Shown: positions 2,985 to 59,161 of the stretch, piece after piece
Layout of the letters: each line of letters starts with the position of its first letter
How positions within the stretch are numbered: position 1 is the first letter of the stretch
Assembly: GCA_963748625.1 (NCBI GenBank)
Contig: CAVVJT010000005.1
Span: 32,001 to 96,000, forward strand
Length of the DNA: 64,000 nucleotides
Direction of reading: 5' to 3'
From: an uncultured Chloroflexia bacterium
GTDB taxonomy: Bacteria; Chloroflexota; Limnocylindria; Limnocylindrales; CSP1-4
The notes under the pieces: model-generated
What the model saw: only the letters and a program-made list of their open reading frames with translations
Database searches by the model: none
Told to the model about the DNA's origin: nothing
Position numbers and translations under genes: made by a program

Positions 2985-3028
2985 CACGTCCGCGGACGCG
3001 AATCACGGCTGCCCCGTACGATGCGCAG

Positions 3029-4033: not shown

Positions 4034-4045
4034 AGACGGGCAACG

Positions 4046-5824: not shown

Positions 5825-5846
5825 CGGAACCGCGGATCAGCGCCCG

Positions 5847-7234: not shown

Positions 7235-7238
<4 letters not shown>
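5847..7238 (-). CDS. pyrC: Dihydroorotase
   Basis: PGLIDLHAHFREPG, GGFTTV..MPNT, VNPPLR, IATDHAPH, SKGKNTP; overlaps pyrB stop. Confidence 0.95.
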
Positions 7239-9003
<1,765 letters not shown>

Positions 9004-9555
9004 TCAGTAGACCGAGACGGTGACCTTGGTGGTCCCGGACCAGGACGGGCACCCGCAGATCGCGAAGAAGTCGGGCGCGTAGAGGTCGACGATCCGGCTC
9101 TTCGTTCGCGGCCCGTAATCGGTGATGGTGCGCTGGATGCAGCCGCCGTCACCGCAGATCACCACGATCGTGCCGCGCGGCAGGCGCATGGCGGTGGTGC
9201 CATTGTGATAGAAGGTCGCGTAGCCGGAGACCTTGTACTCGGGCTCCTTCCAGGCCTTGCCCGACGGCGTGGCCGGCTGGCGCACGACAGGTCGGGACCG
9301 GGGGACCTTGGGCTGTTTGCCGGGCTCCACGAAGACATCGGTGGCCGAGAGGGCGCCAGCCGAGTCGAGGGCAGGATCAAGCAGGCCCCCGGCGCGTGGC
9401 GCGGGGGCGTCCGCGGAGATCACCACCGAGGTGAAGGCCGCCGTCGCCACATCCCGGACCGAGGACGGTGCCTGCGAACCGACCGGGACGGGCAGTCCGG
9501 CGAGTGCGAGTGCGGCGATGAGCGCCGTACCCGCGACGACCGTTCTGCGTCGCAT
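9004..9555 (-). CDS. Exported protein with C-terminal RlpA-like double-psi beta-barrel
   Basis: Signal-like N-terminus; GYATFY...LPRGTIV...ITDYGP..RIVDL...F pattern. Confidence 0.7.
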   Translation of the reverse strand: MRRRTVVAGTALIAALALAGLPVPVGSQAPSSVRDVATAAFTSVVISADAPAPRAGGLLDPALDSAGALSATDVFVEPGKQPKVPRSRPVVRQPATPSGKAWKEPEYKVSGYATFYHNGTTAMRLPRGTIVVICGDGGCIQRTITDYGPRTKSRIVDLYAPDFFAICGCPSWSGTTKVTVSVY

Positions 9556-9611
9556 GGGAGGCGCACTGTACCCGATCCGGCCGCCACTCGCGAGTGTCCC
9601 GGGCCCCAGAC

Positions 9612-10048
9612 AAGCATCCCAACGTCTGTGCTGGCCAGACCGGCTCGCGGTTCCCGGTTCCCTGCTCGCGGTTCCCGGCCCGGCTCCCGGCTCCCGGCTC
9701 AGGCCCAGATGGGCGGCTCAGGCCCAGATGGGCGGCTCCGGCCCGGATGCGCGGCCAGCGTGCGTACGGGCGGATGCCCTGCGATTCCTGCACGCCCAGC
9801 GCGCGGGAACGATGCTCCCCGGGCCCGGGAGGCGCGGAGCTGCGCGCTGGGCGCGCAGGAGTGACGGGTCACGCTCCCGTAGGCACGCCCGGCGCGCACC
9901 GGCGACGGGCGGGGACCTGCGGCGGGGGCCAGGGGCGGGCAAGAACTCCCGCGGGAACACCGGCCGGCCGTCAGCATGCAGGGCACAGGCCGACGGGTGC
10001 GGCACGGCCCGCACCGCGCACTGGGGCCAGCACAGGAGTTGGGACGCT
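9612..10048. repeat. Intergenic element with ~24-bp terminal inverted repeats, internal tandem repeats and hairpin (MITE/REP-like)
   Basis: aagcatcccaacgtctgtgctggcc (9612-9636) vs reverse complement of 10025-10048; ggctcaggcccagatgggc tandem near 9695-9745; ~19-bp stem near 9786-9859. Confidence 0.6.
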
Positions 10049-10087
10049 CCCTGGATCGCGGACGTGCACCGCGGCGCGGCGCCGATC

Positions 10088-11896: not shown

Positions 11897-12525
11897 GACC
11901 GGGCCTCCGGTCGCTGGTCGGCGCGGGCCTCGGCCTCGGCCACGGCGGCCCGTTCGGCAGCGAGCGCCTGACGGAGGCTCTCGCGGGCCCGAGTCAACAG
12001 GGCGCGCGCGGCGACGTGCGAGACGCCGAGGGCGGCCGCGAGCTCGATGCCGGTGAGATCGTGCAGCTCGGCAAGCAGCAGGGCGGACCGCTGGCGCTCC
12101 GGGATCCGCTCCAGCGCCCGCTCGAGCTCGCCCGACAGGCGGGCCTCCATCACGAGGTGCTCAGCGGACGGCGCCGTGTTGCGGGTCTCGCCCACGAGGG
12201 GGATGAAGCGGATGATGCGCTTGCGACGCAGATCGTCGAGGGCGACGCGGTGGGCGATCTGGTACAGCCATGCGCGCGCGTTCTCGGGCTTCTCGAGCGT
12301 GTCGTAGGCCTTGTAGGCCTTCACGAACGCGTCCTGCGTGAGGTCGGCAGCGAGCTCGGGGTCGCGAAGCATGCGCACCAGGTACGCGTAGATCTCGCGC
12401 TGATGCCTACCGAACAGCTCCTCGACGAAGCGATACGCCTCGTCGCGGTCCCATGCGGAGGTCACCGGTCGACCGACCGGCATGGCGCGCCGCTGCTGTT
12501 CGAGCTGGAAGGGATCTGCGACCAC
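11893..12525 (-). CDS. ECF RNA polymerase sigma-70 factor
   Basis: AADLTQDAFVKAY, AWLYQIAHR..LD..RR, region 4 helix-turn-helix; start uncertain. Confidence 0.92.
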   Translation of the reverse strand: MVADPFQLEQQRRAMPVGRPVTSAWDRDEAYRFVEELFGRHQREIYAYLVRMLRDPELAADLTQDAFVKAYKAYDTLEKPENARAWLYQIAHRVALDDLRRKRIIRFIPLVGETRNTAPSAEHLVMEARLSGELERALERIPERQRSALLLAELHDLTGIELAAALGVSHVAARALLTRARESLRQALAAERAAVAEAEARADQRPEARS

Positions 12526-33165: not shown

Positions 33166-35811
33166 TCAGTGGATGGGCGCCGCCTCCTCGCGGCCTTCGA
33201 ACGTGATGCAGCTCTCAACCGGGCACACATACATGCACAGCCGGCAGCCGACGCAGTTGTCGTCCACGACCTCGAGGTGCCGGGTGCCATTGCTGCCGTT
33301 GACCTCGATCGCCTGGTGGGCACCGTCGTTGCAGGCCGCATAGCACAGGTTGCAGTGGATGCACGTCTCCTGGTCGATCCTGGCGATGAGGCGCCACTCC
33401 TGGTCGAGCTTGCCCCAGTCCGTGATCGTCGGCAGTGCCTTGCCCACGAGCTCGCTCGGGCTGTGGAGGCCCTTGTCGCGCAGGTAGGTCGTGAGGCCGT
33501 CCACCAGGTCGTCGGCGAGACGGAAGCCGTAGTGCATGACGCTCGTGCCCACCTGGACGGTGGTGGCGCCACAGAGCAGGAAGTCAACGGCGTCACGCCA
33601 GGTCTCGATGCCGCCGACGCCGGAGATCGGCAGGCCCACCTGCGGGTCCTTGGCCACCGAGCTGACCATGTTGAGCGCGATCGGCTTGACGGCGGGGCCG
33701 GCGTACCCGCCATGGCTGCCCTTGCCGCGGACGTCCGGATCGGGCGCCCATGACTCGAGGTTGACCCCGATCAGCGAGCTGATCGTGTTGATCATCGAGA
33801 CCGCGTCGGCGTTGGCGGCCCTCGCAGCCCGCGCCGGGAACCGGATGTCGGTGATGTTCGGCGTCAGCTTGACGATGACGGGCATCGCCGCCTTCTCCAT
33901 CACCCACTCGGTGATCATCTGGACGTAGTCGGGCACCTGGCCCACCGCCGCGCCCATTCCCCGCTCGCTCATGCCGTGCGGGCAGCCGAAGTTGAGCTCG
34001 TAGCCGTCGGCGCCGGTGTCGTTGCACATGTCCAGGATCTCGTGCCACGCCTCGCGCTTCGCCTCGACCATGAGGCTGATGATGACGGCGTTGTCGGGGT
34101 ACTTGCGCTTCGTCTCCGCGATCTCGGCGATGTTGACCTCCGTGGGCCGGTCGCTGATGAGCTCGATGTTGTTGATGCCGGTGATGCGCCGGCCCTGGTA
34201 GTCGAACGAGCCCAGGCGGGCGGTCACGTTGCGGATCGGCTCGCCGATCGTCTTCCAGACCGCACCACCCCAGCCCGCGTCGAACGCGCGCTGGACCATC
34301 TCGCCGTTGTTGCTGATCGGGCAGCTGGCGAGCCAGAACGGGTTGGGGCTCTTGATCCCGGCCATATCCACCGAGAGGTCGATGCCGGGCAGCGTGGCAT
34401 CCACGGCCCGGCGGACGGGCTCGATGCGGGCGCCCAGCCCGAGCTCGCGGATGATGGAGTGGGCGGCAAGCTTGCCCGCCTGCACCGCGTTGACCACCTC
34501 GGCGCCGCCGCTGGTGATGTCGCCGATCGCCCAGACCTTCGGGTTGGCCGTGTGGCCAGTGGCGCTGTCGGCGCGCACGCTGTCGGCGCGAGAGGTGTCG
34601 CGGGTCTTGCGCACGCCGAGGGCCGTGAGCAGCTCGCGGGCACCGTCGGGCTCGCCCTGTCCGACAGCGCGGATGATGGTGTCGAGCGCCACGCCGAACT
34701 CCGTGTACGCGATGGGCATGGGCGAGCGGCGGCCGGAGGCATCGGGGTCACCGAGGGCCATGCGTGCGAAGGTGGCGCCCTCGACCCGGCCGTCGCCGGT
34801 GATCGCGGTGGGGGCAGTGAGCCAGCGGAGCGTGACGCCCAGCCTGCGCGCGAGATCGATGGCGTGCGGGTAGGCCGGGGTCTCGGCCTCGGTGCGGCGG
34901 TAGAAGAGGGTGACCTCCTCGGCGCCGAGCTTCACCGCGGCCGCAGCCGCGTCGAAGGCCGTGGAGCCGCCGCCGATCACGCCGACCCGCCGGCCGATGA
35001 CCGACGTGGCGAGGGCCGTCGCGTTGGTGCCCGCGGCCGTCGCGTTGGCGCCCGCGGCCCCGGCCGGGTCGATGGCGCGCCGGATCACGTCGAGTGCGTC
35101 CACGACTCCCGGGAGGTCCTCGCCAGGCACACCCAGCGCGCGGGCCTTGCCCAGGCCGATGGCGATGACGACCGCGTCGTTGTCGGCCAAGAGCCTGGCC
35201 GGATCGATGTCGCGCCCGACGCGGCAGCTGGTGATGATGGTGGCGCCCGCGCGCTCCACCTCCGCGGCCTCCGTCGCGATCGCCGTGGCAGCCATGCGCC
35301 AGGGCACGATCCCGTGGTCGGCGAGGCCGCCGGCCCGGGGGGTGTCGTCGTAGAGGGTCACGGCAACGCCGGCCTTGCGCAGCTCCGCCGAGACGGCGAG
35401 GCCGGCGGGTCCGGCGCCGATGACGGCAACCTTCTTCCCGGTCTCCTCGCCCGGCGTGAAGAAGGCGCGGCCAGACTGCGCATAGGCGTCGACGGCGCCC
35501 TGCTGGAGACGGCCGATCGCGATCGGGGTGTCAAGGGCCGTGCGCACGCAGGCGCCCTCGCACAGGTGCTCGACCGGGCATACCGCACCGCACGTGGAGC
35601 CGAGCGGGTTGGCGGCGAGGATGGTGCGCGCCGCGCCGTCCACGTTGCCGGTGGCGATCTTGCGGATAAAGCCCGGGACGTCGATCCCGGTGGGGCAGGC
35701 ATGGGTGCAGGCTGCGTCGACGCAGTAGAGGCACCGTTCGGCCTCCGTCCTCGCGAAGTGACCGGTCAGGGGGAGCACGCGGAGAAACGGGTCAGCCAGG
35801 GCGACGGTCAT
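33166..35811 (-). CDS. preA: Dihydropyrimidine dehydrogenase, PreT-PreA single-chain fusion
   Basis: N-half EAERCLYC..AC..ACP, GAGPAG, GGGSTAFD; C-half NPFWLAS, NNIELIS, ELNFGCPHGM.ERGMG, KLTPN, two CxxCxxC ferredoxin motifs. Confidence 0.92.
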   Translation of the reverse strand: MTVALADPFLRVLPLTGHFARTEAERCLYCVDAACTHACPTGIDVPGFIRKIATGNVDGAARTILAANPLGSTCGAVCPVEHLCEGACVRTALDTPIAIGRLQQGAVDAYAQSGRAFFTPGEETGKKVAVIGAGPAGLAVSAELRKAGVAVTLYDDTPRAGGLADHGIVPWRMAATAIATEAAEVERAGATIITSCRVGRDIDPARLLADNDAVVIAIGLGKARALGVPGEDLPGVVDALDVIRRAIDPAGAAGANATAAGTNATALATSVIGRRVGVIGGGSTAFDAAAAAVKLGAEEVTLFYRRTEAETPAYPHAIDLARRLGVTLRWLTAPTAITGDGRVEGATFARMALGDPDASGRRSPMPIAYTEFGVALDTIIRAVGQGEPDGARELLTALGVRKTRDTSRADSVRADSATGHTANPKVWAIGDITSGGAEVVNAVQAGKLAAHSIIRELGLGARIEPVRRAVDATLPGIDLSVDMAGIKSPNPFWLASCPISNNGEMVQRAFDAGWGGAVWKTIGEPIRNVTARLGSFDYQGRRITGINNIELISDRPTEVNIAEIAETKRKYPDNAVIISLMVEAKREAWHEILDMCNDTGADGYELNFGCPHGMSERGMGAAVGQVPDYVQMITEWVMEKAAMPVIVKLTPNITDIRFPARAARAANADAVSMINTISSLIGVNLESWAPDPDVRGKGSHGGYAGPAVKPIALNMVSSVAKDPQVGLPISGVGGIETWRDAVDFLLCGATTVQVGTSVMHYGFRLADDLVDGLTTYLRDKGLHSPSELVGKALPTITDWGKLDQEWRLIARIDQETCIHCNLCYAACNDGAHQAIEVNGSNGTRHLEVVDDNCVGCRLCMYVCPVESCITFEGREEAAPIH

Positions 35812-36020
35812 CGATTCCACCCTCGGGTTGCGCCGGTCGGCGGCGCGGATCGGCGACCACGCTCAGGGTCACCTCAAGGGGCCAGTGTGCGCGGGGGTCG
35901 GGCGGTTCTCCGACGGCCGAAGGACCCCCACTGGACGTGACCGATTGCAGGGGTTCGGGGCGCGGCGGCGTGGGCCGGGCGCGGCGGCGTGGGCCGGGCG
36001 CGCAATGCGACCACACCGGG

Positions 36021-48466: not shown

Positions 48467-49732
48467 TCAGCCCTCCAGGACGACGTGGATCTGGCCCGAC
48501 CCGTCCACCGAGACCGGGATCTGCGGCAGCGGCGCGGGCGGTGGCCCGCCGAGCACCGCGGCAGCGTTGGCGGGATCGAAGCGGCCCAGATGGCAGGGGC
48601 AGACGAGCTCCTCCACCGACGGGTCGAACGCGACAGTGCACCGGCCATGGGGGCACGTGGCGTTGTAGGCGACGAAGCGGCCGTCGGCCAGCTGCACCAG
48701 CACGCCCGGACCGCCAGGGCCGAGGGCGAATGGCATCTCGTTGGGCACCGTGAAGCCGATGCCGGTGTTGGGACCGAGGTCGGACACACTCGCGATGACG
48801 GGGCCTGCGGTGCCGCCCACGGCACTGGGGGCCGGCGTGGGCGGGGCGGTGGGCGTGGCGGTGGGTGCGGCCGTGGCGGCGGCGGTGGCGGCGGTCGTCG
48901 GGGCAGCCGTGGGGCCACCCGTTGGAGCCGGGGTCGCGGTGGTGGCCGTGGGTGCGGCCGTGGGCGACGGCGTCCTGGCGGCTCCCCCACCCGATGCAGC
49001 CTCGTCCGCGCCAAGGGCTCGAAGGCGGGACATGGCGCCAGCCGTGAAGACCGTCAGCGCGGCCAGGACGCCCACTTGCAGGAGGGCCCGGCGAGCGGGC
49101 GAGATCGCCCGGGGCGTTCCGTCGGCCGCATCGCCGGCGTGGTCGCGAGCATCGGATGCCTTCCTGTGACCACCATCAGTCGGCTGCCCGTCATCGGTCG
49201 GCTGCCCGTCATCGGTCGGCTGCCCGTCATCGGCCGACTGTCTGCCCCGGTCGCCCTTGGACGGCCACGGGTCGATCACCAGCAGGTGCCCGTGACCTGC
49301 CAGCGCGAGCGTCAGGAAGCCGAACGCGTACGGGAGGTCGGGGCTGAAGAAGTACGGCGCGATCGACCACGAGGCCGTGAGCCAGAACAGGATCGACAGG
49401 GCGAAGCCGGCCCACGCGGACAGCCGGTACGCCAGGCCGGTGAGCAAGCCGATGCCGATCGCCAGCTCCCCAAGGGCGATGAGCGCCCCGATCGGGATCG
49501 CCAGCGGCAGCGCCGCCTCGATGAGCGGCGCCAGCGGCGAGAAGCGCAGGTAGCCCTCCATCTGCGCGGCGACGGAGAACGGGTCCGAGGCCTCGAAGAA
49601 GTGAGGGCTGATGAGCTTGTCGATGCCCGCGTAGAGGTACGTGAGCCCGAGGAAGACCCGGAGGGGCAGGAGGGCGGCGGCGGCGATCGGCCGGCCTTCG
49701 AGGCGGGCGGCCCGCTGGTCCCGCTGCGTCAA
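48467..49732 (-). CDS. DoxD/DoxX membrane domain fused to an internal twin-arginine helix and a Rieske [2Fe-2S] domain
   Basis: LPLRVFLG.TY.YAG.DKL, ELAIGIG; SPARRALL; CPHGRC...CPCHLGRF; TTG start overlaps upstream stop. Confidence 0.85.
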   Translation of the reverse strand: MTQRDQRAARLEGRPIAAAALLPLRVFLGLTYLYAGIDKLISPHFFEASDPFSVAAQMEGYLRFSPLAPLIEAALPLAIPIGALIALGELAIGIGLLTGLAYRLSAWAGFALSILFWLTASWSIAPYFFSPDLPYAFGFLTLALAGHGHLLVIDPWPSKGDRGRQSADDGQPTDDGQPTDDGQPTDGGHRKASDARDHAGDAADGTPRAISPARRALLQVGVLAALTVFTAGAMSRLRALGADEAASGGGAARTPSPTAAPTATTATPAPTGGPTAAPTTAATAAATAAPTATPTAPPTPAPSAVGGTAGPVIASVSDLGPNTGIGFTVPNEMPFALGPGGPGVLVQLADGRFVAYNATCPHGRCTVAFDPSVEELVCPCHLGRFDPANAAAVLGGPPPAPLPQIPVSVDGSGQIHVVLEG

Positions 49733-50856
49733 CGGGGGCCTCCTGACAGGGCGGGCACCGACACGGACTCGGCGGCTCGGCGCGCCGTGCGCCACGTTCG
49801 GAAGGCTGCGAAGCCCAGGACAGCGCCGGTGATCGGGACAGCGACGAGGATCAGGAGCTGCCCGTACGCGGCCGCCGCCGGCACGTCGGTGGAGACCAGG
49901 AGCAGGTAGCCGAGATATGCGCCGTAGAAGGCCAGCAGGAGCGCTCCCTCCCGCCGGTCCACCGTGAGCCCGGTGTAGATGATCGGCAGGCAGGCGACAG
50001 CCGCCGCGACCATGAGCGGCACGTCCACGAGGAGGAGCTGCGGCGACACCGGCACGGGCTCGGGCGACACGAGCGCGGTCACTCCCAGCACCATGAGCAG
50101 GTTGAACAGGCAGCTCCCGACCACGTTGCCAACGGCGAGGTCGCGGTGTCCGCGCAGACCCGCCACGATCGACGTGGTGATCTCCGGCAGCGATGTGCCG
50201 ACCGCCACGATCGTGAGGCCGATGACGACCTCCGGGATGCCCAGGGCGGTGGCGATGGTGCTCGCGCCCTCGACGATCCAGTTGGCCCCGACGACCAGGC
50301 CCACCAGCCCCGCCCCGACGAAGGCGAGGTTCGCCACCATCGACCGCGGTGCCCGCTCGACGCGGGCCTCCGCCTCGACCTCCGCGTCGGGCGCCACCTG
50401 CTCCTCGTGCCGGGCGCCACGGACGAGGGCGACGGTATAGACCGTGATCGCCGCGACGAGCAGCAGGCCCTCGACCCGCCCGATGGTCCCGCCGAGCGCC
50501 ATCAGCCAGAAGGCGCCCGAGGCCGCGATCATGATCGGCACCTCGCGCCGGACGACACGCATGCCGGCGGTGATGGGCGTCACGAGTGCGGCCAGGCCCA
50601 GCACGAGCAGGACGTTGGCGATGTTGCTGCCCACAACGTTGCCCAGGGCGATGTCCGGCTGCCCGTCGATGGCCGACGTGATCCCCACCGCGAGCTCGGG
50701 AGCGCTGGTGCCGAAGGCGACGACGGTGAGGCCGATCACCAGCGGGCTGATTCCGAGCACACCGGCGAGGTGGCTGGCGCCACGGACGAGGAACTCACCG
50801 CCGACGACGAGCGCGACGAAGCCGCCAGCGAGCAGGAGCAGCGTTGAAGGTTCCAT
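49729..50856 (-). CDS. Calcium/sodium antiporter (YrbG-like CaCA family)
   Basis: Two alpha repeats GLTVVAFGTSAPE / GLTIVAVGTSLPE, GNVVGS twice. Confidence 0.93.
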   Translation of the reverse strand: MEPSTLLLLAGGFVALVVGGEFLVRGASHLAGVLGISPLVIGLTVVAFGTSAPELAVGITSAIDGQPDIALGNVVGSNIANVLLVLGLAALVTPITAGMRVVRREVPIMIAASGAFWLMALGGTIGRVEGLLLVAAITVYTVALVRGARHEEQVAPDAEVEAEARVERAPRSMVANLAFVGAGLVGLVVGANWIVEGASTIATALGIPEVVIGLTIVAVGTSLPEITTSIVAGLRGHRDLAVGNVVGSCLFNLLMVLGVTALVSPEPVPVSPQLLLVDVPLMVAAAVACLPIIYTGLTVDRREGALLLAFYGAYLGYLLLVSTDVPAAAAYGQLLILVAVPITGAVLGFAAFRTWRTARRAAESVSVPALSGGPR

Positions 50857-51014
50857 CAGGGGCCGATCGTAGCCCGGCCACGGGACGCCGGGAGCCGTGT
50901 CCGCGCCCGGACGGACCCTGGGTCGCGTCCGAGCGGGCCTTGGGTCGCGTCCGAGCGGGCTGACCGGGGGTTCTCGCCCGGCCCCGAGTCAGTAGGGCGG
51001 TTGCCGTGCTGGGA

Positions 51015-51044
51015 CCGTGCACGAAACCCGGGTTTCGTGCACGG
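51015..51044. repeat. Perfect 30-bp palindrome downstream of hoxH
   Basis: CCGTGCACGAAACCC|GGGTTTCGTGCACGG. Confidence 0.85.
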
Positions 51045-51211
51045 CGCGTGCGGGCAGATCCCGCCGGTGACTCGAAGCCGAGTCACGATGCGGGTGCGGT
51101 CCAGGGCACCGGCCGGCCGGGCGCGAGGGCCACCGAAGGCCCGCCGGCCCGGCCGGAATGGCAGGGTGCGATGCGCTGGTCGCACCCTGCCGGGTCCCCG
51201 ATACCTGGGCG

Positions 51212-52669
51212 CTAGACGGTTCCGATCTCGTCGAGGAGCTCGCCGTCGGGCCCTTCGAGCTTGACAACCACCGCCGCCTGCCCCAGCACGTGCGTGGAGC
51301 AGGACAGGCACGGGTCGTAGGCGCGCACGATCGCCGACACGCGGTTGAGCATGCCTTCCTGGAGCTTGCGTCCGTCGACGAACCGCTTCGCCACCTGCTC
51401 CACGCCCCGGCCCATGGCCAGGTTGTTGTGCCCGGTGGCGACGATGAGGTTGACCCACGTGATCGCGCCGTTGTCGTCCACCTTGTAGTGATGGATCAGC
51501 GTGCCGCGCGGGGCCTCGATGACCCCCACGCCCTCGAGGTCGTTGACACCCGCGTGGGCGCGCACCTTGGTGCTCAGGATCGCCGGATCATCGAGCAGCA
51601 TCTGCATGCGCTCAAGGCAGTAGAGCGTCTCGATGAGACGCGCATAGTGGTAGTGGAAGCCGCTCTGGACGATGCGCCCGTACCGCTGGCGGAACTCCCC
51701 GAGCTCCACGTCGGCCAGGGGCGTGCCGCAGCGGTCGATCACGTTGAGCCGGGCGAGCGGACCCACACGGTAGATCCCCGTGTCGAACCCGGACGGCCGG
51801 TAGTACGGCGCCTTGAGGTACGAGTCGGGCAGGGTCGCCTCGGCGATGTGCTCGGCGTAGCGGGACGGGGGCACCTGGTCGGCGACCATCGTCCCGTCGG
51901 CAGCCACGAAGCGCAGGTTGCCGTCGTACAGGCGCAGCTCGCCCTCGGGGCCCACCAGGCCGCAGTACATGGTCGGGAAGTTGGAGAACGACTCGATCTC
52001 GGCCGGGAACGAGTCCACCGTGGCCTTCCACATCCCGAGCGTCCGCTTGACGATGTCCAGCGCGCCTGGCAGCTCGGCCAGGATCTTGTCGCGCGAGGCC
52101 GGGTCCAGGGGCTGGTTGACGCCTCCCGGCACCGTCCACGACGGGTGGACCCGCTCGCGGGCGAGCCGTTCGATGGTCTGCTGGCCGAACTTGCGCAGGG
52201 CGATGCCGTCGCGCAGGGCGTCGGGATGCTCCTCGAGGAGCCCCGCGACGTTGCGCTTGGCCGGGTCATAGTCCATGCCCAGCAGCAGGTCCGGCGCGGA
52301 CAGGTGGAAGAACGAGAGCGCGTGGCTCTGCACGAACTGCGCCATGTGGAGCAGCTCGCGCAGCTTCGACGCGGTGGCCGGGATGCGGACGGCCATGATC
52401 GCGTCGCACGCCTTGGACGATGCGAGCAGGTGGCTGACCGGGCAGATGCCGCAGATCCGCGATGTGATCGAGGGCATCTCGTAGTACGGGCGACCCTCGC
52501 AGAACTTCTCGAACCCGCGGACCTGTGTCACGTGGAACTGCGTGCCCGACACGTCGCCCGCCTCGTCGAGGCGGATCTTGATGGTCGCGTGCCCCTCGAT
52601 CCGGGACACGTGGTGGATGGTGAGGTCGCGGGGGCCGGCGGCCGGCCCGGACTTGGTCTTGGTCGTCAT
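51212..52669 (-). CDS. hoxH: [NiFe] hydrogenase large subunit (group 3d type)
   Basis: [38 protein letters not shown] plus C-terminal extension. Confidence 0.95.
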
Positions 52670-52676
52670 CGTGGGC

Positions 52677-53207
52677 CTACCCGAACCGGAGCTTGGAGCC
52701 GAGGTCCGGCTGGCGCCCCTCGAGGAGCTCCGAGAGGACCATGAGGATCGCGTTGGGCTTGGGCGGACAACCCGGGACGTGGACGTCCACGACCACCTGC
52801 TGGTGCAGCGGCTCCGCCTGGCGCAGGAGCGGCGGGACCCCGTCGACGGGCACCCCGTCCGACTCGGTGGCACCCTCGATGTAGATGCGCTCGAGGAGGC
52901 GCTTGACCGGGATGCCGTTGCGCATCGAGGGCACATTGCCGGTCACCGCGCAGTCGCCCAGCGCCACCACCACCCGGCTGCGGGCGCGGATCGTCTGGAT
53001 GAGCTTGAGATCGTCCTGGCTGGAGACGGCGCCCTCCACGACGGCGACATCCACGTCCTCCGGCCACTCCTGGGCGTCCACGAGCGGCCCGAACACGATG
53101 TCGGCCTTCTTGAGCACCGCCACGATCCCCTCGTCGAGGTCGAGCAGGGACATGTGGCAGCCGGAGCAACCGTCCAGCCAGCAGGTCCCGATCCTGAGCT
53201 TGTCCAT
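52677..53207 (-). CDS. hoxY: [NiFe] hydrogenase small subunit
   Basis: WLDGCSGCHMS, VEGAV, GDCAVTGNVP, PGCPP. Confidence 0.95.
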   Translation of the reverse strand: MDKLRIGTCWLDGCSGCHMSLLDLDEGIVAVLKKADIVFGPLVDAQEWPEDVDVAVVEGAVSSQDDLKLIQTIRARSRVVVALGDCAVTGNVPSMRNGIPVKRLLERIYIEGATESDGVPVDGVPPLLRQAEPLHQQVVVDVHVPGCPPKPNAILMVLSELLEGRQPDLGSKLRFG

Positions 53208-53914
53208 CACGCGCCCTCGCGCATCGAGGTCAGGCGGCTGACCACCGTCCGCTGCTTCGTCATCTCCTCGACGGCGAAGCCTTTCTCGGCCATGGCGCCG
53301 GTGGGGCACGCCTGGACGCACTTCCCGCACGAGGTGCAGGTCGTCGCCTCGCCCCACGGCCGGCGCAGCTCGGACACCAGGTGCGAGGTGACGCCGCGGC
53401 CCGCGATGTCCCAGACATGGGCGCCCTCGATCTCGGCGCAGGTGCGCACGCAGCGCGAGCACAGCACGCAGCGGTTGTGGTCGAGCACGTACCGCGGGTG
53501 GGTCGTGTCCACGGGCAGCCGCGGGTAGCTGTACGGGTAGCGGACGTGGGTCACGCCGTGCTCCTGCGCCAGCGACTGCAGCTCGCAGTGGCCGGACGAC
53601 ACGCACACGGCGCACACGTGGTTGCGCTCGGCGAAGAGCAGCTCCAGGGCAATCTTGCGGTAGCCCTCGATCTGCGCAGAGCTCGTGACCACGGCCTGGC
53701 CCTCGGACACCGGCGTCGTGCAGGCCGGCAGCAGGCGCGACACGCCCGACACCTCCACCATGCACAGCCGGCACGCGCCCACCGTGGACAGGCCCTCCAT
53801 GTAGCAGAGGGCCGGGATGTACTTGTTGTTTGCCCGCGCCACCTCGAGGATCGACTGGCCGGGATCGGCGGCCAGGACCTCGCCGTCGATGCGGACCTTC
53901 ACCTTCTCGCTCAC
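53207..53914 (-). CDS. hoxU: Diaphorase Fe-S subunit
   Basis: IPALC..GACRLC.VE, ERNHVCAVC, RCVLCSRC..C, CTSCGKC..ACP. Confidence 0.95.
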   Translation of the reverse strand: MSEKVKVRIDGEVLAADPGQSILEVARANNKYIPALCYMEGLSTVGACRLCMVEVSGVSRLLPACTTPVSEGQAVVTSSAQIEGYRKIALELLFAERNHVCAVCVSSGHCELQSLAQEHGVTHVRYPYSYPRLPVDTTHPRYVLDHNRCVLCSRCVRTCAEIEGAHVWDIAGRGVTSHLVSELRRPWGEATTCTSCGKCVQACPTGAMAEKGFAVEEMTKQRTVVSRLTSMREGA

Positions 53915-53924
53915 GACATCACCC

Positions 53925-56900
53925 CTATCGCTCGAGGCTGCGGATGTCGCAGCGCAGGCAGCGGGTCGTCTCCTCGAGGGCCGCCACGGCCGTCAGGCCC
54001 AGCGACACCTCGGCTTCGGACTTGACGCGCTGCGCCGCCGGCAGCTCCAGGGGCACGTGGCGCCCGGACTCGCCCGGCGGATCGGGTGGCTCCATCACGT
54101 AGACGAACTCGGGAGTCAGGGCGCTGAAGCGCTTGGCGCCCATCAGCCGCTTGTCGATGTTGCGCGCAGCCTTCTTGCCATAGCCCATGGCGTTGGACAC
54201 GTTCGACGCGCCGGTGATCAGGTCACCGCCCGCATAGAACCGCTCGCGGCTCGTCTCGAGCGAGAAGCGGTCCACCACGATCGTGCCGTTCTCGTTGAGC
54301 GTGAGGCCTGACGCGCGGCAGAAGTCAGGGTCCACGGTCTCGCCTACCGCGAGGATCACGGTGTCGCAGTTGAAGCGGACCACCTCGTCGGTGGAAATGG
54401 GGCGCCGACGTCCCGAGGTGTCGAACTCGCCGAGCTTGGTGCGAACCGCCTCGAGGGCGCGGACCTTGCCGTCCTTGTCGCCCACGATCCGGTGGGGCGC
54501 CGCGAGGTAGACGATCTTCGCTCCCTCGTGCTCGGCGGCCTGGATCTCCTCCGGGATGGCCGGCATGTCCTTGCGCTCGCGCCGGTACACCACGGTCACG
54601 TCCGCGCCCAAGCGCCGGGCGGTGCGGGCGGAATCGATGGCCGCGTTGCCGCCGCCGATCACCACCACGCTCTTGCCCACCGGCACCTCGTCGCTGCGGG
54701 ATACGGCCTCGAGGAACGGCAGGGCGGGGATCACCCCGGTGAGCTCGGTGCCGGGCAGGTAGACCCACGCCTCCTTCCAGGTGCCGATCGCCATGAACAC
54801 CGCGTCGTACTGGTGGGCGATGTCGTTGAGCGTGATGTCCTCGCCGACGTTGACGTTGAACTGGAAGCGCACGCCCAGGCGTTCGATGAGCTCGATCTCG
54901 CGGTCGAGCGACTTCTTGGGCAGGCGGTACTCGGGCAGGGCGTAGCGCAGCATGCCACCCGCCTGCGGCCGGGAGTCCATGACGGTCACGGTGTGACCGA
55001 ACAGGGCGAGGTAGTAGGCGCAGGTGAGGCCCGTGGGCCCCGCCCCAACCACCGCGACCTCGCGACCGGTCGGCTCGAGCCGGCGCTCCCGGAGCTTGGC
55101 CACCATCGTCTCGAAGCGATCGGTGAGCAGGACCTCGTCGGCGATCAGGCGATGGACGTCGCGCATGTTCACCGGCTCGTCGATGCCGGCCCTCCGGCAG
55201 CGATCGTCGCAGGGGTGCTGGCAGACCCGGCCGGTGGAGGCCGGCAGCGGATTGTCCAGGATCACCGAGAGGAACGCGTCCTCCAGCCTGCCCTCCTTGT
55301 ACAGCTGCAGGAAGCGCGGGATGTTCATGTGCAGCGGGCAGGAGTTCTCGCAGGGCGAGAGCGCCAGCTCCTCGCACACGCCGGCGCGGCAGCGTTTGGC
55401 GACGATGTGGTCCTCGAACTCGTGGCGGAAGTGCCGCAGGGAGGTGAGGACCGGGTTGGGCGCGCTCTGGCCCAGGCCGCACAGCGAGGTGTCGCGGACC
55501 ATGCGGCAGAGCTCATCGAGCGAGGCGAGGTCCGCGTGCGTGCCGGTGCCCTTGGTGAAGCGGGTGAGGATCCGCAGCGCCTTGTCCAGGCCCACCCGGC
55601 AGGGGACGCACTTGCCGCAGCTCTCGGAGTGGGTGAACTCGATGAAGTAGCGGGCGACGTCCACCATGCAGTTGTCGGTGTCCATGACCACCATGCCGCC
55701 CGAGCCCATGATCGAGCCGAGCTGCGCGAGGGTCTCGTAGTCCACCGGCGTGTCGAACATGTCGGACGGGATGCAGCCGCCCGACGGGCCGCCGGTCTGC
55801 ACGGACTTGATGTCGTGCCCGGTCCCGGCGCCACCGCCCACGTCGTAGATGAACGTGGAGAGCGGGGTGCCCAAGGGCATCTCGACGAGACCGGTGCTCT
55901 TCACCTTGCCGACGAGGCTGAACACCTTGGTGCCCGCGCTCTTCGGCGAGCCGGTCTCGGTGAACCAGGCCGGACCCTTGGAGACGATGGGCGCGATGTT
56001 GTACCAGGTCTCGACGTTGTTGATGTTGGTGGGCTTGCCGTAGAGGCCCTTCTGGGCCGGGAACGGCGGGCGGGTCCGGGGCTTGCCGGTCTGCCCCTCG
56101 AGCGACGCGATGAGGGCGGTCTCCTCGCCGCAGACGAAGGCACCGGCCCCCTCGACCAGCTGGATGTCGAACGTGAAGCCGCGGCCCAGGATGTTGTCGC
56201 CCAGCACGCCGTACGCGCGAGCCTGGCCGAGGGCGCGCTCGAGGCGCATGACGGCCAGCGGGTACTCGGCGCGGACGTAGATGATGCCCTTCGTGGCGCC
56301 GGTGACGTAGGCCGCGATCAGCATGCCCTCGATGAGAGCGTGAGGGTCCGATTCGATCTCGTTGCGGTTCATGTAGGCGCCCGGATCGCCCTCGTCCGCG
56401 TTGCAGATGAGGTACTTCTCGGGGCCCGGGGCCTTGGCCAGGAACTCCCACTTGTTGCCGGTCATGAAGCCGGCGCCGCCGCGGCCGCGGAGCTTGGCAG
56501 CCTTGATCTGCTCGATGACGGACGCCGGGTTCTGGTCGATCAGGACCTTGTACAGGGCCTGGTATCCGCCGACGGCGACGTACTCCTCGATGTCGTCGGG
56601 GTTGATGAGGCCGCAGTTGCGCAGGACGATCTTGACCTGGGGGTGGAAGAAGGGGACGTCGTGCCAGTCCGGCACGTCGGGCAGGCCGAGGCCGTACTTG
56701 ATGTGCCCCGTGAGGTGGTCCCACTCCTCGATCTTGCACAGGATCGTCTCGGCCGGGGGGAGAGCGCCATCGTCGACGGCCTCGAGGATCGCTTCCACGT
56801 GGTTCGGCCGGACCTGGCGCAGCATCAGCAGCGGCCGGCCCGGGATCCATACGTTCACCAGGGGCTCCTCGGCACAGAAGCCGAAACAGCCGACCGGCGC

Positions 56901-57080
56901 GAGCTCGATGTCGAGGCCGCCCGCCTCGATCTCGGACGCGAACGCGTGGTAGACGGACTCCGCACCGTTGCCGGAGCCGCACGTGCCCATGCCAACCGCG
57001 ATCCGCGGCCGTGACGGCAGGAGCTTGGCGAGCCCCGCCTCACGCACGCTGGCGAAGGCGGCGATGTCGGTGATCCTCAT
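53925..57080 (-). CDS. hoxF: HoxF/NuoF-like diaphorase subunit fused to a C-terminal GltD/NfnB-like FAD/NAD(P)H module
   Basis: LRGRGGAGF, CNADEGDPG, GAFVCGEETAL, ESCGKC.PCR; then PCENSCP, GRVCQHPC, GAGPTG, GGGNAAID, YRRER, RCLRCD. Confidence 0.9.
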   Translation of the reverse strand: MRITDIAAFASVREAGLAKLLPSRPRIAVGMGTCGSGNGAESVYHAFASEIEAGGLDIELAPVGCFGFCAEEPLVNVWIPGRPLLMLRQVRPNHVEAILEAVDDGALPPAETILCKIEEWDHLTGHIKYGLGLPDVPDWHDVPFFHPQVKIVLRNCGLINPDDIEEYVAVGGYQALYKVLIDQNPASVIEQIKAAKLRGRGGAGFMTGNKWEFLAKAPGPEKYLICNADEGDPGAYMNRNEIESDPHALIEGMLIAAYVTGATKGIIYVRAEYPLAVMRLERALGQARAYGVLGDNILGRGFTFDIQLVEGAGAFVCGEETALIASLEGQTGKPRTRPPFPAQKGLYGKPTNINNVETWYNIAPIVSKGPAWFTETGSPKSAGTKVFSLVGKVKSTGLVEMPLGTPLSTFIYDVGGGAGTGHDIKSVQTGGPSGGCIPSDMFDTPVDYETLAQLGSIMGSGGMVVMDTDNCMVDVARYFIEFTHSESCGKCVPCRVGLDKALRILTRFTKGTGTHADLASLDELCRMVRDTSLCGLGQSAPNPVLTSLRHFRHEFEDHIVAKRCRAGVCEELALSPCENSCPLHMNIPRFLQLYKEGRLEDAFLSVILDNPLPASTGRVCQHPCDDRCRRAGIDEPVNMRDVHRLIADEVLLTDRFETMVAKLRERRLEPTGREVAVVGAGPTGLTCAYYLALFGHTVTVMDSRPQAGGMLRYALPEYRLPKKSLDREIELIERLGVRFQFNVNVGEDITLNDIAHQYDAVFMAIGTWKEAWVYLPGTELTGVIPALPFLEAVSRSDEVPVGKSVVVIGGGNAAIDSARTARRLGADVTVVYRRERKDMPAIPEEIQAAEHEGAKIVYLAAPHRIVGDKDGKVRALEAVRTKLGEFDTSGRRRPISTDEVVRFNCDTVILAVGETVDPDFCRASGLTLNENGTIVVDRFSLETSRERFYAGGDLITGASNVSNAMGYGKKAARNIDKRLMGAKRFSALTPEFVYVMEPPDPPGESGRHVPLELPAAQRVKSEAEVSLGLTAVAALEETTRCLRCDIRSLER

Positions 57081-57607
57081 CGTGCGCCGTCCTTGCGGAC
57101 CTGCTCGATCTCTCGGATGAGAGCCTGCTCCCTGACGTGGCCCCGGATCGCGTGATCCACCTCCACGACGGGTGCGAGCGCGCACTGGCCGAAGCAGGCG
57201 ACGGTGCGGACGGTGAACTTGCGGTCCGGCGTGGTCAGGGTGAGCTTGTCGGCCGCATGCGCCTCGCCCAGGCCAAGCTGGAGCTTGACCCGCTCGAGCA
57301 GCATCCGGGAGCCCCGGGTGTGGCACGCCGTGCCGCGGCAGATCGCCACGGTGTGCGTGCCCTGGGGTTCGAGGTTGAACAAGGCGAAGAACGTGGCGAC
57401 CGCGTAGACCTGCGCCTGCGGAATCCCGGTCCGGAGCGCCACGTACTCGAGTGTCTCCATGGGCAGGTACTTGTGCCGGTTCGCGTCCTGCAACTTCTCG
57501 AGGATGCCAAGCAGCGCCCCGGGCCGGCCGTCCTGCTCGCCGATGATCCGGTCGATCAGGTCCTGGTCCTCGACCCTCGGTAGCGCCGTGGCCAACGAGT
57601 TGGACAT
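57077..57607 (-). CDS. hoxE: NuoE-like [2Fe-2S] subunit
   Basis: VATFF, CRGTACH, ACFGQCALAP; GGAGGG RBS. Confidence 0.92.
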   Translation of the reverse strand: MSNSLATALPRVEDQDLIDRIIGEQDGRPGALLGILEKLQDANRHKYLPMETLEYVALRTGIPQAQVYAVATFFALFNLEPQGTHTVAICRGTACHTRGSRMLLERVKLQLGLGEAHAADKLTLTTPDRKFTVRTVACFGQCALAPVVEVDHAIRGHVREQALIREIEQVRKDGAR

Positions 57608-58089
57608 CGGGCCCTCCAAACACACAAGAAAGCCGTGCACCTGGGAGGACAGGACGGAGTCCGGCCAGGAGGACGCACGGCAACTGCGGCAAGCCTCCCG
57701 CAGCGGGACTAGAACGGTGAAGTGCCTCGGGACAGGGGGACGGCAGGGGCCGGTCCCAGTCCGACCATGCCGAGCGGCGGGCAGCGGGTGCCATGTGGAT
57801 GGCGCGTCGCCGCGCCCGTCCCGCGCTCTCGGGGTCGCCTAGTGTCGCGTGCCGCCAATGGCTGGCGGATACCCCTTCGTGCCCGTGCCGCTGGTCGGAA
57901 GCGGCATCACCGGGCGTCGCCCACGACGGCTGCTGCCGTGCGCACCCGGCGCGCACACGGAGCGGTGACGTCGCGGGATGTGCGCCCCGTGCTCCGCCCG
58001 TGCGCTCCGCCAGGGTCCCGAGGGCACGACCTGCGCACCAGCCGCGCATCGAGCGCTGCCGCCGCACCGTGTGGCCGTCCGGCGCGCAG

Positions 58090-58145
58090 CCGGACGGAGA
58101 CAGGACCCGGACGGAGACAGGACCCGGACGGCGCCAGGACCCGGA
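58090..58145. repeat. 17-bp tandem repeat, ~3.3 copies
   Basis: ccggacggagacaggac twice, then ccggacggcgccaggac. Confidence 0.8.
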
Positions 58146-58189
58146 GCGGCGGTCCTACGCAAACCGCCAGCGACCAGCGAATCGGGACA

Positions 58190-59161
58190 CTAGTTGAGCA
58201 GCTTGGGCGAGGTGTCGAAGGCGACGTGCCCGCCGAACCGGCCGTGCAGGGCGTCGTCGAGGTGGTCGGCAAGGGCGCCCAGCTCCTGGCAGGCGAACGC
58301 GACATGGGCAGGCGTGAGGTCGATCGCCGGGATCTCGAGCACCACGAGGACTACTGGGCCTGCAGTGAAGACGCGCCCGTAGCGCGTCCGGCCATTGATG
58401 TCGTCGATGGCGGCGAGGAGGTCTGGGGTCACCTTCACATCTTGGAGGACCGGCGAGAAGACGGAGATGGCCGGCGGCACCCCGTCGAGGATCCGCAGGT
58501 AGCAGATGGCACTGCCGGTGCGGATCGGGTAATCCCCGTCCTGGTCCGGGACGACCCTGGACACGCCCAACCACGCCGCGAGGGCCTTCTCCACCCGCGT
58601 CCGCAGCCCGCGCGCCCGCTTGGGCTTGCGTCCCCGCTCCGGGGAGCGGCGCGGCTCGTCACGCCGGATGCCGAGCGATGGCAGGGCGGGCAGGGTGTCC
58701 GGGCCGGCGGGAAATGCTTCGTACGCGAACCGCAGGACCCCGGGGTCGCCGGCCCCGTAGACCTCCCGTAGCGTCTCCACCGCAAGCGCGGCGACCTCCC
58801 CCACGGGCGCGGGCGCCTCCCAGGTCCGGTGGGCGTTGCGCTGGGTGTCCTCGTCCGCGGGCTCCGTCCAGCCGAGGTTCCGGATGCGCTCGCGCTGGGC
58901 AACGGTCAGCGGCTGCGCGGGCGGCAGGTGACCACTCCCGACGGCCTCTGCCCGGAGGTCTTCCGCGCGACTGGCGAACTGCACGTAGTAGCCCGGGTCA
59001 TCACCCTGCGCGGGCACCGACAGGACCAGGAATGTCTCGGGCGCCATCGCCGCGAGGGCCTTCGCCAGCCGCCGCTCGAAGGCCGCCCACGTCAGACGCC
59101 GTGTCCGGGGTGCCGCGGCCGACGCCGATGGCGATGCATCATTCCTGCGCCCGACTGGCAT
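58190..59161 (-). CDS. Two-domain T3SS-chaperone/YbjN-like (TY-Chap) protein
   Basis: W..F..RL, YVQF..LRAEAV..LGW..P..N..TLREVYG; C-terminal DQDGDYPIR.GS..INGR..YGR. Confidence 0.65.
   Translation of the reverse strand: MPVGRRNDASPSASAAAPRTRRLTWAAFERRLAKALAAMAPETFLVLSVPAQGDDPGYYVQFASRAEDLRAEAVGSGHLPPAQPLTVAQRERIRNLGWTEPADEDTQRNAHRTWEAPAPVGEVAALAVETLREVYGAGDPGVLRFAYEAFPAGPDTLPALPSLGIRRDEPRRSPERGRKPKRARGLRTRVEKALAAWLGVSRVVPDQDGDYPIRTGSAICYLRILDGVPPAISVFSPVLQDVKVTPDLLAAIDDINGRTRYGRVFTAGPVVLVVLEIPAIDLTPAHVAFACQELGALADHLDDALHGRFGGHVAFDTSPKLLN

Follow-up and report, generated by a model that had tools for sequence, protein, structure and literature searches.

Which electron carriers could a Hox-type hydrogenase serve when its flavin subunit carries a second nucleotide-binding flavin module? 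The question is raised by a hoxEFUYH operon on a 64,000-nucleotide stretch of contig CAVVJT010000005.1 from an uncultured Chloroflexia bacterium, the whole of which is referred to here as the window. An initial annotation had placed five hox genes at 51212–57607 and had described a HoxF of about 1050 amino acids (aa) with an N-terminal thioredoxin-like Cys domain, a NuoF core for flavin mononucleotide (FMN) and reduced nicotinamide adenine dinucleotide (NADH), and a GltD-like unit where HydB-type subunits have a 2x[4Fe-4S] ferredoxin domain. The present analysis bears out the five genes, closely spaced on the minus strand, and, through Pfam and alignments to solved chains, a HoxF of 1051 aa; its domains and ligands identify this protein as a Bfu/Hox-type FMN-NADH subunit fused at its C-terminal Cys/His hinge to an NfnL/GltD-type module. 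We consider it likely, with some confidence, that the module would act as a working entry or exit for the phosphorylated coenzyme NADP(H), wired to the hydrogenase. The explanation as a whole, a fused Hox enzyme in which NADP(H) would take the role of ferredoxin and coupling of the two nucleotide reactions is the single most likely mode, is put at a probability of roughly 0.5.

Architecture of the fused HoxF subunit

HoxF reads in one frame through the Pfam domains Complex1_51K (residues 192–363), SLBB (387–435), NADH_4Fe-4S (474–558), Fer4_20 (561–650) and Pyr_redox_2 (674–966), and the motifs quoted in the initial annotation are all present, with EGAGAFVCGEETAL at residue 310, CRAGVC at 564, GAGPTG at 679, GGGNAAID at 809 and YRRER at 832. 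Conservation was assessed over 68 sequences, namely the window's HoxF and the 67 orthologues with one frame from the best 80 loci described below. The first 150 residues align with the N-terminal domains of 9n5u_B and 7t2r_B, and their three Cys (Table 1) are kept in 67–68 of the 68; the same three-Cys pattern occurs in T. sibiricus NfnB, where the site holds a redox-inert Zn and the enzyme still bifurcates (PMC12018979). The core that follows scores 148 bits with Complex1_51K and 111.6 bits with NADH_4Fe-4S, and comparison of HoxF to solved B chains gives a near tie between 9n5u_B (623 bits) and 7t2r_B (619 bits). The [4Fe-4S] ligands of the core (C488, C491, C494 and C534) and those of the hinge (C471, H558, C564 and C569) are kept in 68 of 68 orthologues. 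The hinge residues correspond to C438, H525, C531 and C536 in A. mobile and to C437, H524, C529 and C534 in T. sibiricus; the site holds Zn in several structures, and its His is described in these sources as present in nearly all BfuB and absent from non-bifurcating homologues (PMC12018979; PMC9304861). GGPSG is present in HoxF, and the A-x-M motif reads AYM.

The alignment to HydB ends at residue 572, where the 2x[4Fe-4S] ferredoxin-like domain of HydB begins, in agreement with the position that had been proposed for the GltD unit. A Pfam scan of HoxF finds no Fer4-type dicluster (B3/B4 ferredoxin-docking) domain; the GltD-type Fer4_20 comes instead. After CPAGVC the chain of non-fused relatives either ends (Hox type) or runs into CxxCxxCxxxCP (Bfu type), whereas fused HoxF runs into SPCENSCP. 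By sequence position, then, the GltD module appears to take the place of the ferredoxin-like domain of bifurcating HydB subunits. It does follow CRAGVC in frame, as had been noted, although CRAGVC itself (C564 and C569) belongs to the hinge site and the module starts at C577. This first ligand lies eight residues past C569, and the cluster distal to the flavin adenine dinucleotide (FAD) would be tethered at that distance from the hinge.

The Fe-S domain of the module was aligned to 9bov_A, 9n5u_A, 5jca_L and 8oh5_C, and its ligands are kept in 68 of 68 orthologues. The last two Fe-S ligands lie at the extreme C-terminus (C1041 and C1044, in RCLRCD) and are invariant in both family alignments as well as in the 68 orthologues. 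In the StnC-like chains 9bov_A and 8oh5_C the counterpart of RCLRCD is RCLECG, near residue 560, whereas in NfnL 5jca_L it is RCLQC at the N-terminus; the module is therefore circularly permuted in the manner of the Stn/Nfn-Bfu inserts (StnC/NfnA). Residues 574–1045 as a whole match best to 9bov_A (375.6 bits), 9n5u_A (348.5), NfnL 5jca_L (325.3) and 8oh5_C (317.8). By analogy with the topology of dihydropyrimidine dehydrogenase, we take C577, C628, C1041 and C1044 to be the ligands of the FAD-distal cluster and C581, C620, C624 and H643 those of the FAD-proximal one. The position of H643 is occupied by Lys in Nfn-Bfu and by Glu in NfnL (our alignment; PMC12018979).

The FAD domain shows GAGPTG and the N5-Arg, R719, within PEYRLPK, and the NADPH-type domain shows GGGNAAID followed by VTVVYRRERKDMPA. 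The FAD, N5-Arg and NADPH-type stretches match those of NADPH-using relatives, and the FAD and NADPH-type motifs are kept in 67–68 of the 68 orthologues. With NCBIfam whole-protein models of the GltD/Nfn type, all scores remain under the cut-offs (PRK12771, 469.7 against 516; gltA, 362.9 against 471.75; gltD_gamma_fam, 292.4 against 482.95). The proposal of two nucleotide-type flavin sites in one hydrogenase subunit finds support in the conservation of all FAD, NADPH-motif and Fe-S ligands, which points to two such sites in HoxF.

Reality and spread of the fusion

A search of species-representative genomes gave at least 813 matching stretches, of which at least 793 encode a relative of HoxF (the fusion having been checked in part of them), and the best 80 loci were taken for synteny and frame checks. 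These loci all come from metagenome-assembled genomes; 73 match HoxF from about residue 1 to 1047 or beyond, and seven are cut by contig ends. Splitting of the reading frame at the junction had been set beforehand as the result that would count against the fusion. In 67 of the 80 loci the hoxF frame runs uninterrupted over 1000–1100 aa, the remainder being the seven contig-end cuts and six split matches. The initial annotation had also called for a search for NuoF and GltD beside hoxUYH: when the five proteins of the window serve as tblastn queries, matches to E, U, Y and H turn up in 73, 76, 76 and 74 loci, respectively, and all five genes occur together in 67, in the order E-F-U-Y-H in nearly all. 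Locus L060 is an exception, with its best U and H matches upstream of hoxE; where loci lacking some of the five were inspected, the misses fall at contig ends. Every ligand and motif checked is identical in 67 or 68 of the 68 orthologues, and mean column identity over the full family alignment is 79%. The best 120 protein clusters measure 1021–1056 aa, are 81–93% identical and are labelled ‘NADH-quinone oxidoreductase subunit F’ or ‘FAD-dependent oxidoreductase’.

The suspicion that misassembly or a frameshift has joined two genes into one long frame has in its favour only that the window's assembly carries 7.7% reported contamination and may be binned, and its probability is negligible. The same single frame recurs in those 67 loci of other assemblies, the 120 best clusters are all of fused length, and the eight residues between the hinge and the first GltD ligand are too few to accommodate a stop codon, a ribosome-binding site and a start codon between the halves. 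The joined frame is thus confirmed as genuine, and the artefact is refuted for practical purposes. Among public sequencing runs, none contains more than 0.21 of the sampled words, with short contigs of relatives at most; two short contigs of one run (X20) span the junction near 55364, weakly, and are not used as evidence, and one metatranscriptome (X19) covers parts of hoxF, a coverage from which transcription is not inferred.

The best matches come from uncultured Chloroflexota and Acidobacteriota of soil, wetland and freshwater. Within the best 80, identity to the window's HoxF is 77–86% for Chloroflexota, including those labelled Limnocylindrales, 78–84% for Vicinamibacteria and other Acidobacteriota, and 70–75% for Bryobacterales and Terriglobia. 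Copies of Vicinamibacteria and other Acidobacteriota are as near to the window's HoxF as many Chloroflexota copies are (78–84% against 77–86%), a similarity across phyla that suggests either recent transfer of the whole operon or mis-binned contigs.

A subunit reused with other partners

A junction query (HoxF residues 500–720) was run against 151 evenly sampled genomes from the phylum and matches over its whole length in 12, the window's genome included. The matching frames measure 1032–1076 aa, the window genome's own stop-to-stop frame being 1409 aa; one match is a congener at 88% identity and ten others lie at 42–47%. Seven of these ten were fetched and examined (L108–L114, Table 1). All seven follow a nuoE-like gene and align over almost all 1051 residues at 43–47% identity, and the motifs of NuoF, of the hinge and of the Fe-S, FAD and NADPH-type sites are preserved in every one; the N-terminal site has four Cys in five of them, and the H643 position holds Lys in six and His in one. 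By their partners they divide into five NiFe hydrogenase operons, one [FeFe] HydA and one FdhA. Given such distinct hydrogenase and dehydrogenase partners, the fused NuoF-GltD subunit is a reusable module and not a peculiarity of Hox.

A tree of the NuoF core was built by a quick method from 46 hand-picked rows, of which 21 are fused (12 of the 68 close orthologues with the window's among them, P0125, P0127 and the seven distant genes) and 25 non-fused (22 representatives and three genes from the loci). The window's clade groups with P0125 at a Shimodaira–Hasegawa-like approximate likelihood ratio test (SH-aLRT) value of 99, and HydB-type proteins with the ferredoxin-like domain stand next to it, a placement that is weakly supported. 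The fusion label changes five times on the tree as drawn, one change being forced by well-supported branches.

Ten further proteins of fused length at 30–40% identity (P0135, P0142, P0144, P0151 and P0154, and likewise P0166, P0167, P0195, P0204 and P0220) were set aside as another family with degenerate NuoF motifs, degeneracy having been judged by eye in the alignment at GRGGAGF, the FMN loop and CxxCxxC. Among them P0142, P0154, P0195 and P0220 (1030–1130 aa) have a NuoF-like half without FMN loop or CxxCxxC, yet their hinge His/Cys site is retained and their GltD module intact, and a Cys-rich extension is added at the C-terminus; one cluster of this group is labelled Desulfobaccales. These four look like a separate family.

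Proposed electron flow and alternatives

In the scheme that we propose, electrons from H2 would pass from HoxH through HoxY and HoxU to the [4Fe-4S] cluster of HoxF and on to FMN. A first pair would leave FMN as a hydride to NAD+, and a second would travel through the [2Fe-2S] cluster of HoxE and then both GltD-type clusters, reaching FAD and finally NADP+, for a net reaction 2 H2 + NAD+ + NADP+ = NADH + NADPH + 2 H+, which would be reversible. NADP(H) would here replace the ferredoxin used by NiFe-HydABCSL and Synechocystis HoxEFUYH. Any bifurcation would be expected at the FMN and the clusters next to it, as is the case for Bfu enzymes and Synechocystis Hox. An NfnB-style bifurcating FAD, which the initial annotation had raised, is unlikely: neither the operon nor its immediate surroundings encode an NfnA/NfnS-like partner, the wider genome not having been searched for one, and the FAD ends a single electron path in the homologous Nfn-Bfu module (PMC12018979).

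That the two nucleotide reactions are obligatorily coupled, through bifurcation or confurcation at the FMN site, we regard as possible, a little short of an even proposition. The likeness to 7t2r, the hinge His/Cys site, GGPSG, the position of the module, its resemblance to that of Stn/NfnABC, its conservation and its modular use may all be cited for the proposed scheme as a whole. The more general statement, that fused NuoF-GltD proteins form a ferredoxin-independent branch of the Bfu/Hox enzymes whose FMN and Fe-S site would split electrons from H2 (or formate) between NAD+ and NADP+, is put forward more tentatively still. With in vivo potentials of -280 mV for NAD and -380 mV for NADP (Table 1 of PMC9304861) and an E0' of -414 mV for H2, the H2 needed for NADP+ reduction is calculated at about 7 kPa alone and about 0.15 kPa when coupled 1:1 with NAD+; in reverse, H2 would be sustained at about 3 Pa from NADH alone and about 150 Pa from NADH and NADPH together.

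Several considerations weigh against NADP(H) in the role of ferredoxin. In vivo NADP+ lies only about 100 mV below NAD+, so the gain from coupling is modest, and a simple enzyme using two coenzymes uncoupled would work too. The ferredoxin site of canonical Hox has been placed near HoxE and the HoxF N-terminus (preprint 10.64898/2026.06.25.734504), and since canonical Hox bifurcates without any C-terminal domain, an addition at the C-terminus need not replace ferredoxin; the four-Cys N-terminal site of some distant fused members would allow a ferredoxin branch, and the A-F-M motif reads A-Y-M in fused HoxF. The specificity of the second FAD site for NADPH, and not NADH, is suggested solely by motif homology. 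The function proposed for the fused family as a whole is read from sequence. An AlphaFold2 model of HoxF, built from a 34-row alignment, reaches a mean predicted local distance difference test (pLDDT) of 75.5 and a predicted template-modelling score (pTM) of 0.53, with the hinge (557–580) and most cofactor sites below a pLDDT of 50; given so low a confidence at the hinge, the model does not predict where the module lies relative to the HoxE cluster. The NuoF-core tree, with five changes drawn and one forced, is compatible with a single or with multiple origins of the fusion.

The GltD module may instead do no more than give a linear Fe-S wire one further NADP(H) port, in a hydrogenase that serves two coenzymes without coupling them and would also run a slow NADH/NADPH transhydrogenation. 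Simple NADPH entry is the role of GltD-type modules in glutamate synthase, in dihydropyrimidine dehydrogenase and in the NADP-formate dehydrogenase of M. thermoacetica (PMC8097209; PMC5736913), the NAD and NADP potentials are close, and the AlphaFold2 model gives no fixed domain arrangement. We nevertheless find this account rather doubtful: two features reported for bifurcating members, the hinge His/Cys site and GGPSG, are found in the HoxF core, every characterised close solved relative bifurcates, and the module occupies the position of the ferredoxin domain. It is also conceivable, though unlikely, that ferredoxin or flavodoxin is still used at the surface of HoxE and the HoxF N-terminus, with the module as an Nfn-like NADPH link in an enzyme of four partners. 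Stn and NfnABC combine NADPH, NAD+ and ferredoxin (PMC12018979; PMC11829005), Synechocystis Hox uses ferredoxin without a C-terminal domain, and a four-Cys N-terminal site is present in five of the seven distant fused homologues; the window's clade, however, has three Cys only (67–68 of 68), the equivalent site of T. sibiricus NfnB holding a redox-inert Zn, and its HoxF is without the B3/B4 ferredoxin-docking domain.

A module that makes no use of NADPH, and takes NADH or another acceptor such as polysulfide, seems very unlikely. Its second Rossmann motif and YRR(E/T)x(K/R)DMP match the NADPH-using NfnL and Nfn-Bfu proteins residue by residue and are invariant in the family. GltD-like modules do have varied partners, and sulfide dehydrogenase is reported to reduce polysulfide. 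NADH is used by eukaryotic and some cyanobacterial glutamate synthases (PMC8097209). Taken together, a Hox enzyme that delivers electrons to NAD+ and, in the place of ferredoxin, to NADP+ is the reading that we prefer.

Novelty and implications

No description of a HoxF/HydB-GltD fusion was found in open-licence PubMed Central papers or bioRxiv, subscription-only literature and supplements lying outside the search, and the view that no characterised enzyme of this architecture is known held within that range. As a new system of the window the enzyme is undescribed in the searched literature; it is far from confined to the window, belonging as it does to a widespread family. The survey of Bfu enzymes by Schut et al. 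(2022; PMC9304861) picked BfuB by a set of domains including the ferredoxin-type 4Fe-4S domain IPR017896, a choice that would leave out the fused HoxF family. Annotation surveys would presumably count a hydrogenase of the fused type as an ordinary NAD-linked one of group 3d.

The fused architecture is widespread and serves [NiFe] and [FeFe] hydrogenases as well as formate dehydrogenase operons. If the NADP(H) module works, H2 metabolism and the NADPH pool would be directly linked in these abundant lineages, bifurcation of the Bfu/Hox kind could take a nucleotide instead of ferredoxin, and the same subunit would make for NAD/NADP-linked [FeFe] hydrogenases and formate dehydrogenases. Were the ferredoxin-independent branch real, aerobic or facultative soil bacteria could make NADPH from H2 below 1 kPa and, in reverse, dispose of NADH and NADPH jointly by releasing H2. 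No earlier bifurcating enzyme would then have had a pyridine nucleotide, and not ferredoxin or flavodoxin, as its low-potential partner. H2-driven joint regeneration of NADH and NADPH would also be of practical interest for cofactor recycling.

The operon and other loci of the genome

The operon encodes a soluble Hox-type (group 3d-like) [NiFe] hydrogenase, HoxEFUYH, an assignment made from the gene order, a HoxU above its cut-off, a short HoxY and both CxxC pairs in HoxH. Gene starts were set at the first Met after which similarity begins, and longer open frames of 1380 and 574 aa were rejected as upstream read-through in high-GC DNA, the region having a guanine plus cytosine content of 68–70%. 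The hoxE stop and the hoxF start overlap as ATGA. HoxE retains all four [2Fe-2S] Cys and has 7t2r_C as its best solved relative (114 bits); with the NCBIfam HoxE model it scores 116 bits, under the cut-off of 224. HoxU reaches 345.7 bits with NCBIfam NF005745, over a cut-off of 333, and 237 bits against residues 3–215 of the 692-aa chain 7t2r_A. HoxH has the N-terminal and the C-terminal (DPCLSCSTH) NiFe-binding CxxC pair; its score is 519 bits with 7t2r_D, against 397 with 5xf9_D (H. thermoluteolus type) and 380 with MvhA 5odc_F. These scores, and 54% identity to the HoxH of a canonical operon, speak indirectly for a place in group 3d. Its tail of 25 residues past DPCLSCSTH (461–485) implies processing by an endopeptidase; three of the HycI type occur in the genome, none of them beside the fused hox operon.

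Table 1. Coordinates of the hox genes in the window, segments of HoxF, and gene arrangements around distant fused homologues (positions in the last rows refer to the respective loci)
Feature	Position	Strand	Description
hoxE	57077–57607	minus	176 aa; NuoE/HydC-type, thioredoxin-like [2Fe-2S] site, Cx4C...Cx3C; PF01257 at 123.7 bits
hoxF	53925–57080	minus	1051 aa
hoxU	53207–53914	minus	235 aa; short NuoG/HydA-N-terminal type Fe-S subunit
hoxY	52677–53207	minus	176 aa; short [NiFe] small subunit; PF01058 (Oxidored_q6) at 104.9 bits
hoxH	51212–52669	minus	485 aa; [NiFe] large subunit; PF00374 (NiFeSe_Hases)
HoxF residues 1–150	56631–57080	minus	thioredoxin-like domain, three Cys (C34, C65, C69)
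HoxF residues 151–572	55365–56630	minus	NuoF/HydB core: FMN/NADH site, [4Fe-4S] site, hinge site
HoxF residues 573–660	55101–55364	minus	GltD/NfnL-type Fe-S domain: C577, C581, C620, C624, C628, H643; Fer4_20 at 66.4 bits
HoxF residues 661–985	54126–55100	minus	FAD domain and NADPH-type domain; Pyr_redox_2 at 114.6 bits
HoxF residues 986–1051 and stop	53925–54125	minus	tail rejoining the Fe-S domain; C1041, C1044 in RCLRCD
L109, L110, L114			after fused gene: 650–662-aa NuoG/HydA-like subunit, then NiFe small and large subunits (NiFe-HydABCSL layout)
L111			after fused gene: polyferredoxin-like protein, then NiFe subunits
L112			after fused gene: second E/F pair, then U, Y, H
L113	5944–10815		after fused gene: [FeFe] hydrogenase HydA (Fe_hyd_lg_C, 348 bits)
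L108	7281–17150		after fused gene: FdhA-type molybdopterin subunit, two FolD genes, formate-tetrahydrofolate ligase (Fhs)

The 355 bases after hoxH (50857–51211) hold no credible gene, and a scan of 50700–58300 found neither promoter nor terminator. Around the operon lie genes for a Na/Ca exchanger, a DoxX-Rieske protein, a DAO oxidoreductase, a YbjN-like protein, a major facilitator superfamily (MFS) transporter and an M20 peptidase, which appear unrelated to it. The DoxX-Rieske protein, an open frame of 442 aa at 48467–49795 (minus strand), shows an unusual pairing of DoxX/DoxD (residues 41–144) with a C-terminal Rieske [2Fe-2S] domain (364–427). A second protein with a GltD module in the window, an ordinary one of its kind, is an 884-aa dihydropyrimidine dehydrogenase-like fusion of Fer4_20, Pyr_redox_2, DHO_dh and Fer4_21 at 33166–35820 (minus strand).

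The window's assembly (4.63 Mb in 10 contigs) has six loci with NiFe large-subunit matches and is unusually hydrogenase-rich. One of them is a second, canonical hoxEFUYH (L105:6055–11079, contig C4), whose HoxF stops nine residues beyond HIVDKRCPAGVCE, carries four Cys at the N-terminal site and reads AFM; fused and canonical Hox forms, 50% identical in HoxF and 54% in HoxH, coexist in one genome. On the same contig, L107:6856–13908 carries HdrB (CCG), an HdrA-like protein, MvhD (FlpD), the NiFe small subunit (MvhG), the large subunit (MvhA) and HycI, and is by its gene content a group 3c-type hydrogenase with heterodisulfide reductase; two more loci match the large subunit at 774 and 533 bits. 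Contig C7 encodes on its minus strand (L106:4844–7294) an 816-aa NuoG-like protein made up of Fer2_4, a GltD-type insert (Fer4_20 and Pyr_redox_2) and a 4Fe-4S dicluster, in the StnC/NfnA layout and directly after NuoE- and NuoF-like genes. NuoD-, NuoH- and NuoL-like genes surround it in a nuo-like operon (1893–12372), which could specify an NADPH-linked complex I-type enzyme.

Comparison with known systems

The four subunits other than HoxF find their best solved matches in the bifurcating NiFe-HydABCSL 7t2r, HoxF standing in a near tie. In its five subunits, their order and the short HoxU and HoxY, the enzyme is like the group 3d HoxEFUYH of Synechocystis PCC 6803, which bifurcates and confurcates at FMN with NAD(H) and ferredoxin and for which the preprint counts NADPH as no partner (10.64898/2026.06.25.734504; Hox bifurcation is also cited in 10.64898/2026.07.24.740500). 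Canonical HoxF shares the FMN and [4Fe-4S] sites, GGPSG and the H-x5-C-x4-C hinge, the last as seen in the canonical paralogue of this genome; it differs in ending at the hinge, where fused HoxF adds 480 residues with FAD, two [4Fe-4S] clusters and an NADPH-type site, and in having a four-Cys N-terminal site and AFM against three Cys and AYM.

The NiFe-HydABCSL of A. mobile (7t2r/7t30) is the best or near-best solved relative across the subunits and shares the hinge ligands, except that its C476 is Thr in fused HoxF. Its HydB, however, has at the C-terminus a ferredoxin-like 2x[4Fe-4S] domain from which ferredoxin receives its electrons, in contrast to the GltD/NfnL module found here, and its HydA has 692 aa against the 235 of HoxU; some distant fused homologues resemble it in having a long HydA-like subunit of about 650 aa. 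With the Bfu family at large, and its BfuBC core, HoxF shares FMN, the B1 [4Fe-4S] cluster site and the His/Cys site of the hinge, but it is without the C-terminal 2x[4Fe-4S] B3/B4 domain. Bfu enzymes bifurcate at FMN and the neighbouring [4Fe-4S] and [2Fe-2S] clusters, and their low-potential route leads from the mobile HydC/NfnC domain through the ferredoxin-like domain of the B subunit to ferredoxin (PMC12018979; PMC11829005; PMC9304861).

Hydrogenases of other NADP-linked types are less alike. Group 3b [NiFe] hydrogenases are NADP-coupled but have unrelated beta and gamma subunits, HoxH scoring only 118 bits to sulfhydrogenase alpha, and the [FeFe] group A2 is described in the HydDB paper with a separate GltD-like gene and no NuoF. 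NfnAB/NfnSL and GltD share with the module their fold family, two [4Fe-4S] clusters, FAD and NADPH motifs; they differ as stand-alone subunits with CxxC at the N-terminus, and NfnL needs NfnS, a PyrK-like partner, for its FAD-based bifurcation. The closest GltD-type module is that of Stn/NfnABC (8oh5, 9bov and 9n5u), which also share the BC core and the same circular permutation. Those enzymes have the module as an insert in their NuoG/HydA-like A subunit, where it brings in electrons from NADPH as the mid-potential donor; its FAD binds NADP(H) and forms the terminus of one electron path (PMC12018979). Their B subunit retains the ferredoxin-like domain, and no hydrogenase is attached; in the fused enzyme the 235-aa HoxU has no Pyr_redox domain and the B-type subunit carries the module instead, with His643 in place of Lys as the fourth ligand of the FAD-proximal cluster. 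The enzyme is of the known Hox/Bfu type, and what is new about it is the place in which it carries a known NADPH-entry module.

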